64,000 bases of DNA from Escherichia coli. Its GTDB lineage: Bacteria > Pseudomonadota > Gammaproteobacteria > Enterobacterales > Enterobacteriaceae. The stretch is from NCBI RefSeq assembly GCF_003334765.1, contig NZ_QOWT01000001.1. One strand, 5' to 3'. Below the pieces are notes generated by a model. The model did no database searches and had not been told where the DNA came from. It was given only the letters and a program-made list of their open reading frames with translations. Below are positions 39,135 to 41,357 of this stretch, one piece after another; position 1 is the first letter of the stretch; each line of letters opens with the position of its first letter. A program made the position numbers and the translations under genes.

Positions 39135-41357
39135 TTAGTCCTCGTTTACAACCTTCTGCTGGGCGGCTTTTTTGGCCTGAGCGCGGGCAATAGCCGCGGC
39201 AACTGCCGCTTTGCGCGGATCAACCTGTTCTTCTGGTACCGCATTAGCCTGTTGCTGTTCCAGCTTGCGTGCTTTGGCGCGTGCAATAGCCGCTTCGACG
39301 GCAGCTTTGCGCGGATCAACCTGTTCTTCTGGCTCCGCATTAGCCGGTTGCTGTTCCCGTTTGCGCGCTTTGGCTCGGGCAATAGCGGCTTCGACGGCGG
39401 CTTTGCGCGGATCGACCTGTTGTTCTGGCTCGGCATTAGCCTGTTGCTGTTCCAGCTTGCGTGCTTTGGCACGGGCAATAGCGGCTTCGACGGCGGCTTT
39501 GCGCGGATCGACCTGTTCTTCTGGTTCCGCATTAGCCTGTTGCTGTTCCAGCTTGCGCGCTTTGGCACGGGCAATAGCGGCTTCGACGGCGGCTTTGCGC
39601 GGATCGACCTGTTGTTCTGGTTCCGCATTAGCCTGTTGCTGTTCCAGCTTGCGCGCTTTGGCGCGGGCGATAGCTGCTTCAACGGCAGTTTTACGTGGAT
39701 CAGCAACGGTTGCTGCGTCGTTAGTTTGCTGCAGTTCTGCCTGTTTCGCTCTGGCTTGCGCTTTACGGGCTTCCCGTGCTGCAATAATTGCACTGTTATC
39801 CGGGCGTTCGCCCGCTTTAATCACAATAGGCTGTGTAGCCTGGGCCTGTTTCTCTTTCACCCGCGCCAGAGCGGCAGCAATCGCATCTTTATCTTTGGCT
39901 GCAGGTTGAACGGCTGCGCTCTTATGTCGTTCAAGGCGAGCCGCTTTTTCGCGCTCCAGACGAGCCTGGCGCGCTTCGAAACGCGCTTTGGCTTCTGCGG
40001 CGCGCTTTTCTTCCTGACGAATAGCCGCAATTTCAGCTTTTTCCTGACGGAAATATTGCACCAGGGGAATATTGCTCGGGCAAACCCACGCGCAAGCCCC
40101 ACATTCAATGCAATCAGCAATGTTATGCGTGGTAGCTTTATCGTGTTGCTGACCTTTGCTGAACCAGTACAACTGTTGCGGCAAAAGATCCGCAGGGCAG
40201 GCGTCAGCACAGGCGCTACACCGGATGCAGCTTTGTTCTTCCTGTGGTTCGCCAAGTTCATTGGCAGAGGGAGCCAACAGACAGTTGGTAATCTTTACGA
40301 CCGGGACATCCAGCCATGGCAAGGTAAAGCCCATTAGCGGGCCACCCATAATCACCATTTGATCGGCAGAGGGGCAGAATCCGGCATCATTCAATAAATG
40401 ACGCACTGGCGTCCCCAGCCGTGCCCAGACGTTGCCCGGGCGAGCGATTGCTTCGCCAGTCAGGGTTACAACACGCTCGGTAATCGGCTCGCCATCAATA
40501 ACGGCACGTTTCACTGCATAAGCAGTGCCGACGTTTTGCATTAATACGCCGATATCGGATGAACGCCCGCCATGTGGAACCTGCTTCCCGGTCAGAATGT
40601 AGGTTAATTGTTTAGCACCGCCAGAAGGATATTTGGTTGGAATCACCCGCAGAGAAATATCGTTAGAGTCCGCCAGCACCGCGCGCAGCATGGAAATCGC
40701 CTGCGGTTTGTTATCTTCAATGCCGATAAGAATTTCGCGTGGCTGCAGAATATGCGCAAGAATGCGAATACCCTCTACGACCTGAGCCGCGCAATCCTGC
40801 ATCAAACGGTCATCGGCGGTAATGTACGGCTCGCACTCAGCCGCGTTGATAATCAACGTTTCAATCTTATCTCCGCCACCCTGCAATTTAACGCCTGTCG
40901 GGAATCCTGCACCGCCCAGCCCGGCAACACCAAACTGATGTATGCGCTCGATTAACTCTTCGCGACTGCGAGTGCGATAATCGGCCCAGCCGTCGCGCGG
41001 GATCCAGCAGTCTTCACCATCGGCATCAATAATCACGCTTAATTCAGCTAAAGCTGAAGGATGAGCCGTAGAGTGGGGCGCAATAGCCGTAACGGTACCC
41101 GAGGTGGGCGCGTGAACAGGCAGCATTTTGCCGCGACCACGGGTAAGCGGCTGGCCGCGCAATACTTTATCGCCGACGCTAACGCACAACTCACCTTCAG
41201 CGCCAATATGCTGTTTCAGTGGAATAACAAAACGCTGCGCCAGGGGTACCTGGCGCAGGGGTGTACCGTTGGACTGGGTTTTCATCTCCGGTGGATGGAT
41301 GCCGCCGTTGAAATCCCAGATTTTATTTTTTCTGAATGCAGAGAATAACTTAAGCAT
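39135..41357 (-). CDS. rsxC: Rnf/Rsx complex subunit C (740 aa) with two 4Fe-4S ferredoxin motifs and a C-terminal 32-aa repeat array
   Basis: ORF-track 740 aa; [12 protein letters not shown] and [12 protein letters not shown] motifs; C-terminal repeats [32 protein letters not shown], about 6 copies. Confidence 0.95.
39150..39725. repeat. In-frame 96-bp tandem repeat array (about 6 copies, near-identical) inside the rsxC 3' coding region
   Basis: Marker ccgcattagcctgttgctgttccagcttgcg recurs with 96-nt period around 39238, 39336, 39432, 39528 and 39624; encodes the 32-aa Ala/Lys/Glu-rich repeat of RsxC. Confidence 0.85.

Follow-up and report, generated by a model that had tools for sequence, protein, structure and literature searches.

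Is a tandem repeat that lies in frame at the end of a bacterial gene the debris of recent replication slippage, or is it a peptide module kept for its protein sequence? The question is raised by rsxC in a 64,000-nucleotide stretch of Escherichia coli DNA (assembly GCF_003334765.1, contig NZ_QOWT01000001.1; hereafter the window), whose 3' third carries an array of 96-bp units. RsxC is subunit C, on the NAD(P)H side, of the Rnf-type complex RsxABCDGE. The 740-aa open reading frame (ORF) scores 868 bits against the NCBIfam equivalog NF003454 (cutoff 345) and 597 bits against TIGR01945, and the rsxC annotation is carried at the matching locus in 5,425 E. coli genomes. A Pfam scan places an RnfC_N barrel at residues 14-115, a Complex1_51K domain (NuoF-like, for flavin mononucleotide (FMN) and NADH) at 139-283, SLBB at 296-344 and a 2x[4Fe-4S] ferredoxin at 373-430. 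Together with the rsxABCDGE/rnfABCDGE operon setting, this domain set identifies the protein as an RnfC/RsxC. No Pfam family covers residues 431-740, and neither the Pfam nor the NCBIfam scan matches a family to the repeat array at residues 553-740. The parts of the gene are as follows.

39135-41357, minus strand: rsxC coding sequence, 740 aa plus stop (ORF list; NCBIfam NF003454)
40068-41318, minus strand: RsxC catalytic core, aa 14-430 (Pfam scan; aligns with the solved RnfC chains 8ahx_C, 7zc6_C and 9eri_C)
39606-39701, minus strand: repeat unit 1, aa 553-584 (translation)
39510-39605, minus strand: repeat unit 2, aa 585-616 (translation)
39414-39509, minus strand: repeat unit 3, aa 617-648 (translation, unit barcodes); doubled in strain FELIX_MS533
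39318-39413, minus strand: repeat unit 4, aa 649-680 (translation)
39222-39317, minus strand: repeat unit 5, aa 681-712 (translation)
39138-39221, minus strand: terminal variant unit of 28 aa, aa 713-740 (translation)

The first-pass annotation of this DNA, made from the letters and an ORF list, had described near-perfect 96-bp in-frame repeats at the 3' end of rsxC. Tandem Repeats Finder detects one array, at 39181-39702 (period 96, 5.4 copies, 91% matches, 0% indels, score 813), and a repeat search of the window finds six in-register copies spaced exactly 96 nt; the periodicity is thus confirmed by both approaches, and the 32-aa consensus first proposed turns out to be exactly unit 2. There are five full 96-bp units at 39222-39701 (aa 553-712) and a degenerate terminal unit of 84 bp. 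The term near-perfect applies well to the peptides, between which only 1-4 codons are changed, but less so to the DNA, since full units differ at 4-14 of 96 nt (85-96% identity), mostly at synonymous sites.

Each 32-aa unit is made of two parts: an 18-residue basic motif, Ala-rich and with a single Glu, encoded by the first 18 codons, and a 14-residue acidic linker that contains Pro. In E. coli the motif has a net charge of +4 and the linker of -4, so that the whole unit is neutral. Among E. coli units, the ratio of nonsynonymous to synonymous substitution (dN/dS) is 0.02-0.04 in the motif and 0.15-0.26 in the linker; across species the motif ratio is 0.01. Synonymous divergence between K-12 units amounts to about 0.4-0.5 (~0.48 in the motif), which makes the repeat units old, and over the E. 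coli and cross-species comparisons it ranges from 0.4 to 1.4 in the motif. For the latter comparison, 80 species-representative Enterobacteriaceae loci were collected, 75 of which have the motif. Each of the 18 positions is 96-100% conserved over the 258 internal motif copies from these 75 species, and the codons used are mixed across copies (GAT 135 and GAC 121; GTC 98, GTT 93, GTG 34 and GTA 30). The linkers differ across species in both sequence and length, giving units of 30-65 aa, and complete proteins carry 2-7 motif copies. The terminal copy is a distinct and itself conserved variant, with Ala at position 8 and Val or Ala followed by Gln at positions 14-15; it is found at the C terminus in 69 of 69 complete motif-bearing tails. 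These patterns indicate strong purifying selection on the motif at the protein level. Because the motif is so constrained and the units are old, the array is a multi-copy peptide module that is maintained, and not the debris of recent slippage.

The motif seems to belong to RnfC tails. A profile of the motif with short flanks was searched exhaustively against 1.84 billion representative proteins, a library without names or taxonomy, at E <= 0.001 and returned only 207 matches. Inspection of the 47 listed matches of 180 aa and more turned up 17 that are full-length, at 650 aa or above; every one of these has the Fe-S and FMN motifs of RnfC, and variant copies of the repeat motif number up to 10-13, for example in P0121 (880 aa) and P0126 (971 aa). 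The remaining inspected matches are short fragments. One short protein of 206 aa (P0194; L095 226-846) combines a Zn_ribbon_4/5 domain at the N terminus with an acidic linker and two motif copies, and its gene lies directly upstream of rnfD-rnfG-rnfE-nth, where the 3' end of rnfC would be expected, on a 10-kb metagenome contig of 3x coverage. It may be a chimeric assembly joined at the repeat, or a rare carrier of the motif other than RnfC. A known relative of the array is found in Erwinia amylovora, whose RsxC contains a 40-aa tandem repeat in 0-5 copies that has been proposed as a variable-number tandem repeat (VNTR) marker (Sci Rep 2023, PMC10587187). That repeat sits at the same position in the same protein, and its unit begins with the same 18-residue motif as in E. 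coli; it differs in being 40 aa long instead of 32, with an unrelated linker of Ala, Pro and Gln.

At the DNA level, the E. coli array has been in use for some time. Published primers for ms11, a locus in multiple-locus VNTR analysis (MLVA), have unique exact matches on either side of it.

39087-39106, plus strand: ms11 MLVA reverse primer site, CTGGCGCTGGTTATGGGTAT (unique exact match; primer from PMC8215070, PMC4644529, PMC11773471)
39833-39852, minus strand: ms11 MLVA forward primer site, GAAACAGGCCCAGGCTACAC (unique exact match)

The amplicon in the window extends from 39087 to 39852 and measures 766 bp. With the published 96-bp unit and 286-bp offset of ms11 (PMC4644529), (766-286)/96 gives 5.0 units. 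Because the published primers flank the array uniquely and the amplicon returns this whole number, the rsxC array is the VNTR locus ms11, a typing marker in use since 2008 and hence already known: primers, unit and offset are the same, and at the DNA level there is no difference. The marker belongs to a Shigella/E. coli MLVA panel that PMC4644529 credits to Gorgé et al. (2008, J Clin Microbiol 46:1026). The MLVA typing literature (PMC8215070, PMC4644529, PMC11773471), in one paper of which the locus is written 'ms11 (rsxC)', gives E. coli alleles from about 4.5 to 7 and a Simpson index of 0.68 in 80 isolates. These typing papers take ms11 purely as a size marker and say nothing about the motif that it encodes or about selection on that motif; what the analysis adds to the known ms11 is that each repeat carries a helical motif of 18 residues, held almost unchanged by selection across many genera. 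Two other in-frame genic repeats, CVN004 in tolA and CVN001 in ftsK, serve as E. coli MLVA markers together with ms11. The CVN004 unit is 15 bp, much shorter than that of ms11. The CVN001/ms07 unit, at 39 bp (PMC4644529), likewise falls far below 96 bp.

The length of the array varies among E. coli genomes. An earlier query comprising the array and its flanks had returned spans shorter by 96, 192 and 288 nt and was unable to size alleles longer than itself. For sizing, the two 600-nt flanks were therefore joined with the five full units removed, such that the span recovered per genome gives the array length; the query was applied to 60 rows spaced evenly down a ranking of 5,425 complete E. coli genomes, and 59 were resolved. 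Five full units are found in 37 of these genomes (63%), four in 7, six in 7, seven in 6, and two and three in one genome each, corresponding to a Simpson index of unit count of 0.57. The count is five in K-12 MG1655, B and HS, six in O157:H7 Sakai as well as in the O145 and cattle strains sampled with it, and seven in ST131. Annotated RsxC lengths in complete E. coli genomes (644, 676, 708, 709, 734, 740, 772, 773 and 806 aa) agree with the unit counts. The expectation of the first-pass annotation that rsxC length is polymorphic between strains, to be checked by comparing copy number across alleles, is borne out by the range of 2-7 full units and 644-806 aa, with strains differing by whole units.

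When every distinct unit sequence is given its own number, so that K-12 reads 1-2-3-4-5-6, the rearrangements become legible. PSS-16 has the barcode 1-2-6, in which units 3-5 are deleted; STK78-E has 1-4-7-6, in which units 2-3 are deleted; and FELIX_MS533 has 36-2-3-3-4-5-6, in which unit 3 is duplicated. Copy number thus changes by clean in-register loss or gain of whole units. Neighbouring units, one repeat apart, have exact in-register runs of up to 55 nt in common. Such identity is enough for misalignment or unequal exchange, and loss and gain would proceed by replication misalignment or by unequal exchange between sister strands. The array is nevertheless slow to change: among the best 60 matches to ST131-type flanks, all 60, including EC958, JJ1886 and SE15, have an identical span of 1,878 nt. 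Because the span is equal in all of them, the array is not hypermutable, and the count is fixed within clones such as ST131. A phase-variable contingency locus was considered and ruled out, in that 96 nt equals 32 codons, all alleles that vary in count remain in frame, and the 60 ST131-type genomes are stable. The frame-disrupting variants that were seen are an extra C in a homopolymer (PF9285), unrelated to unit number, and a truncating deletion in XL10-Gold.

The first-pass annotation had supposed the charged tail to be helical, and an AlphaFold2 (AF2) run on the single sequence of RsxC residues 434-740 agrees. It predicts two helices upstream of the array.

39837-40055, minus strand: long post-ferredoxin helix, aa 435-507 (AF2; predicted local distance difference test score of 93-96 over the first 40 residues)
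39708-39797, minus strand: second basic helix, aa 521-550, conserved upstream of the array (AF2; equivalent segments in other RnfC tails)

Residues 489-504 of the post-ferredoxin helix form a degenerate, motif-like stretch of 16 residues. Within the array, the model gives one helix of about 24 residues per unit, with about 8 disordered residues of low confidence in between, and a predicted template-modelling score (pTM) of 0.25. On this model the tail would be a flexible string of helices and not one folded domain. The E. amylovora study had speculated on a solenoid or toroid fold (PMC10587187), from which the separate helices predicted for the E. coli tail differ; the low pTM and low-confidence linkers of the single-sequence model would lean against the packing of units into a fixed superhelix.

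Two further structural readings of the motif can be set aside. Its Eisenberg hydrophobic moment is 0.15-0.22 and its mean hydrophobicity -0.38, with charges spread around the helical wheel; an amphipathic membrane-binding helix is rejected on this low moment and the lack of a contiguous hydrophobic face. A single alpha-helix (ER/K) spacer does not fit the Pro-containing breaks that AF2 places in every unit or the Ala-rich character of the motif with its single Glu. A search of PDB sequences with the motif profile found no chain that contains the motif; the best match, a cullin fragment, was rejected as a motif structure, its E value of 0.15 being at chance level.

Solved complexes bear on where the tail begins. 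In Azotobacter vinelandii RnfC (PDB 8ahx chain C), a C-terminal helix homologous to RsxC residues 435-498 follows right after the 2x[4Fe-4S] ferredoxin; it reportedly makes contact with RnfB and with RnfH, and what it does there is not understood (PMC12174285). Unlike E. coli RsxC, the A. vinelandii protein ends at 496 aa and has no array of the DPRK-type motif, and the Clostridium and Acetobacterium RnfC chains, of 435-443 aa, have no tail.

These observations can be joined into one account, to which we assign a probability of about 0.8: the array is the ms11 minisatellite, changes slowly by whole units and encodes a conserved basic helix module, and the tail that it forms would dock a partner. 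The tail would be a flexible cytoplasmic extension of RsxC, a series of helices on a string, anchored by the long post-ferredoxin helix, the equivalent of which lies against RnfB in the A. vinelandii Rnf complex. It would then leave the complex near RsxB, and the repeated basic helices would probably offer a conserved partner several docking sites at once. That partner could be an acidic flavodoxin or ferredoxin, SoxR, or a further component of Rsx/Rnf; the valency or the reach of docking would be set by copy number. A more specific version is offered tentatively, and we would not bet on it at even odds: that the 18-residue helix and its variants constitute an undescribed, RnfC-specific short linear motif, displayed in 2-13 copies near RnfB/RsxB, which recruits a flavodoxin or ferredoxin, SoxR or a neighbouring complex, with the ms11 copy number setting the valency.

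Several points weigh against this account. Anything from 2 to 7 full units is tolerated in E. coli, and E. amylovora is reported with 0-5 of its own repeat (PMC10587187), so that any effect of copy number must be weak or mild. The census of copy number is a sample of 59 genomes, and slippage or recombination is read back from its products. The structural model was run on one sequence. Solved structures stop at about RsxC residue 498, and the case for docking is accordingly one of conservation.

An alternative partner for the basic helices would be nucleic acid. The Ala-rich helices might bind DNA or RNA in the manner of histone-like AKKA/KPAA tails, tethering the complex to the nucleoid and bringing it near SoxR. 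The charge of +4 is in keeping with such a role, as is the low hydrophobic moment, which is not that of a membrane-type helix. In basic-region helices, too, Ala stands beside Arg or Lys, much like the invariant Ala of the motif. Rsx moreover reduces SoxR, a DNA-binding regulator (PMC12174285). Against a tether, the E. coli linkers exactly cancel the charge of the motif, leaving the unit neutral; RnfC tails from beyond the Enterobacteriaceae set conserve the motif just as well; and no nucleic-acid-binding family was matched in the Pfam, NCBIfam or PDB searches. We consider nucleic-acid binding unlikely and the weaker alternative to docking of a protein partner.

It could also be that copy number itself is under selection and adjusts Rsx activity, or the resetting of SoxR, to the niche. 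The counts are indeed specific to lineages, with seven units in ST131, six in O157:H7 Sakai and the sampled O145 strains, and five in K-12, B and HS, but such an association is equally the prediction of neutral clonal inheritance. RsxC variants were chosen as features by a machine-learning model of clinical outcome in O157:H7, for which positions are not given (PMC12711010), and in E. coli ATCC 25922 evolved to olaquindox resistance in the laboratory, rsxC acquired a non-frameshift deletion (PMC7696260), for which the position within the gene is not reported; both could reflect the array. All changes in count are in frame, however, and offer no on/off switching, and an array that is invariant in 60 of 60 ST131-type genomes does not behave as a contingency locus. 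Adaptive tuning of this kind is therefore, in our estimation, distinctly improbable.

A third possibility is that the tail is a neutral spacer of low complexity, tolerated by the complex, in which repeats persist through regeneration by slippage. Such a spacer would fit with the 2-7 copies carried by E. coli without a known phenotype, with the lack of a Pfam family over residues 431-740, and with the RnfC proteins of Clostridium and Acetobacterium, which lack the tail, and of A. vinelandii, in which it is short. It would leave unexplained a motif dN/dS of 0.01-0.04 at a synonymous divergence of 0.4-1.4, and conservation at all 18 of the 18 positions next to linkers that diverge freely. Homogenisation at the DNA level cannot account for the conservation of the motif either, because codon choice is mixed between copies. 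We regard a neutral spacer as very doubtful.

That the differences in copy number are artefacts of mis-assembled repeats is scarcely credible: draft assemblies do break within the array and some complete genomes, such as PF9285 with its extra C, have probable sequencing errors in the tail, but PCR-based MLVA shows the same size classes, counts are consistent within lineages across independent complete genomes, and variant alleles are built from the very unit sequences of K-12, with units simply missing or doubled.

The region is nonetheless easily mis-assembled, as the first-pass annotation had cautioned. In 8 of the 80 species-representative loci, all from other Enterobacteriaceae, the sequence ends inside the array, and when proteins were searched with one unit and the terminal unit, most of the matches were contig-end fragments of 44-100 aa, annotated as partial RsxC/RnfC. 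These fragments come from drafts of E. coli, Salmonella, Citrobacter and Klebsiella, and some of their clusters have hundreds of members.

A number of aberrant records were seen as well. In PF9285 (L093, NZ_CP038791.1), a C-run in the terminal unit is longer by one C, and the gene is annotated as a frameshifted pseudogene; the added C is possibly a sequencing error. OkiPb01695 (L094, NZ_AP042570.1) has an in-frame deletion of 18 nt inside the terminal motif, which leaves AAIKAAQQ and an RsxC of 734 aa, a rare natural variant of a last copy that is conserved elsewhere. In Citrobacter amalonaticus AUH_CA_2023_1 (L030), Enterobacter cloacae DSM 26481 (L071) and a metagenome-assembled genome from soil (L083), RsxC ends early, at 516-591 aa and with no motif copies, apparently through frameshifts in or before the array that are either real or sequencing errors. 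In XL10-Gold (L004 2447-2520, NZ_CP081008.1; about window position 39366), rsxC is a truncated pseudogene whose array is cut within a unit; about 54 nt of unrelated sequence, in which there is a short palindrome (ATCACTTAAATAAGTGAT), then lead into a partial dicB, a gene of the Qin prophage. The arrangement implies a large deletion that would have removed rsxD-rsxE-nth and everything up to dicB; the junction sequence was searched for in the 64-kb window and not found there. The rsxC on a contig titled 'Chryseobacterium sp. 18061' (L044, CACSKA010000003.1) is of Enterobacteriaceae type, shares 88% aa identity with that of E. coli and has five motif copies, so that this assembly is probably contaminated or mislabelled. 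Finally, an 88-aa protein annotated as a partial IS1 family transposase (P0013; PF03400) is also 100% identical to an RsxC repeat unit over 40% of the query, which suggests that IS1 has inserted into the tail of rsxC in some strain of E. coli.

Long ORFs run across the array on the opposite strand; the first-pass annotation had called them spurious, and so they are.

39030-40337, plus strand: antisense ORF of 435 aa, not a gene (ORF list; stop count in the codon-aligned antisense frame)
39211-39909, plus strand: antisense ORF of 232 aa, not a gene (ORF list; stop count in the second antisense frame)

The rsxC tail contains no TTA, CTA or TCA codons, of which the core has 10, and because of this the codon-aligned antisense frame is open, with 0 stops anywhere in the tail. 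A second antisense frame has no stops across the array, between sense residues 484 and 725. About half of the tails in other genera are likewise open in antisense. A real antisense gene was rejected, given that the open frames follow from the use of Ala, Lys, Glu, Gln and Arg codons and are common in other genera; they are a by-product of codon composition. A third long ORF, of 215 aa at window positions 39146-39793 on the minus strand, runs through the array in another frame than rsxC and is presumably spurious too, having the same repetitive, low-complexity character.

At its very end, the terminal unit meets the next gene. Annotated gene order in the matching genomes is rsxA-B-C-D-G-E, and in the window the ORFs of rsxD (38076-39134) and rsxG lie immediately downstream of rsxC, whose stop codon (39135-39137) abuts the rsxD ATG (39132-39134).

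39139-39143, minus strand: GAGGA in the final two codons of rsxC, ending 4 nt before the rsxD ATG (read from the sequence)

This GAGGA is likely the Shine-Dalgarno element of rsxD, and a double role of the stretch may account for the ...VNE[DE] C terminus conserved across Enterobacteriaceae.

Taken together, the first-pass interpretation is supported, yet the repeat that it describes is ms11 and so is not new; research value lies only in the constrained motif of the RnfC tail, which is a modest lead. In practical terms, differences in rsxC length and 'partial' or 'frameshifted' calls in E. coli, Shigella, Salmonella and their relatives mostly reflect this array and should not be taken for loss of function, and short-read assemblies are unreliable for rsxC copy number. 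The locus is a slow marker at the level of lineages, and association studies that flag RsxC may pick up clonal background. For the Rnf/Rsx field, which has been without an explanation for long RnfC tails, an array of constrained helices provides a concrete and testable handle. The motif could help to explain how Rsx finds SoxR or its electron carriers, a question of modest interest and no long-standing puzzle.

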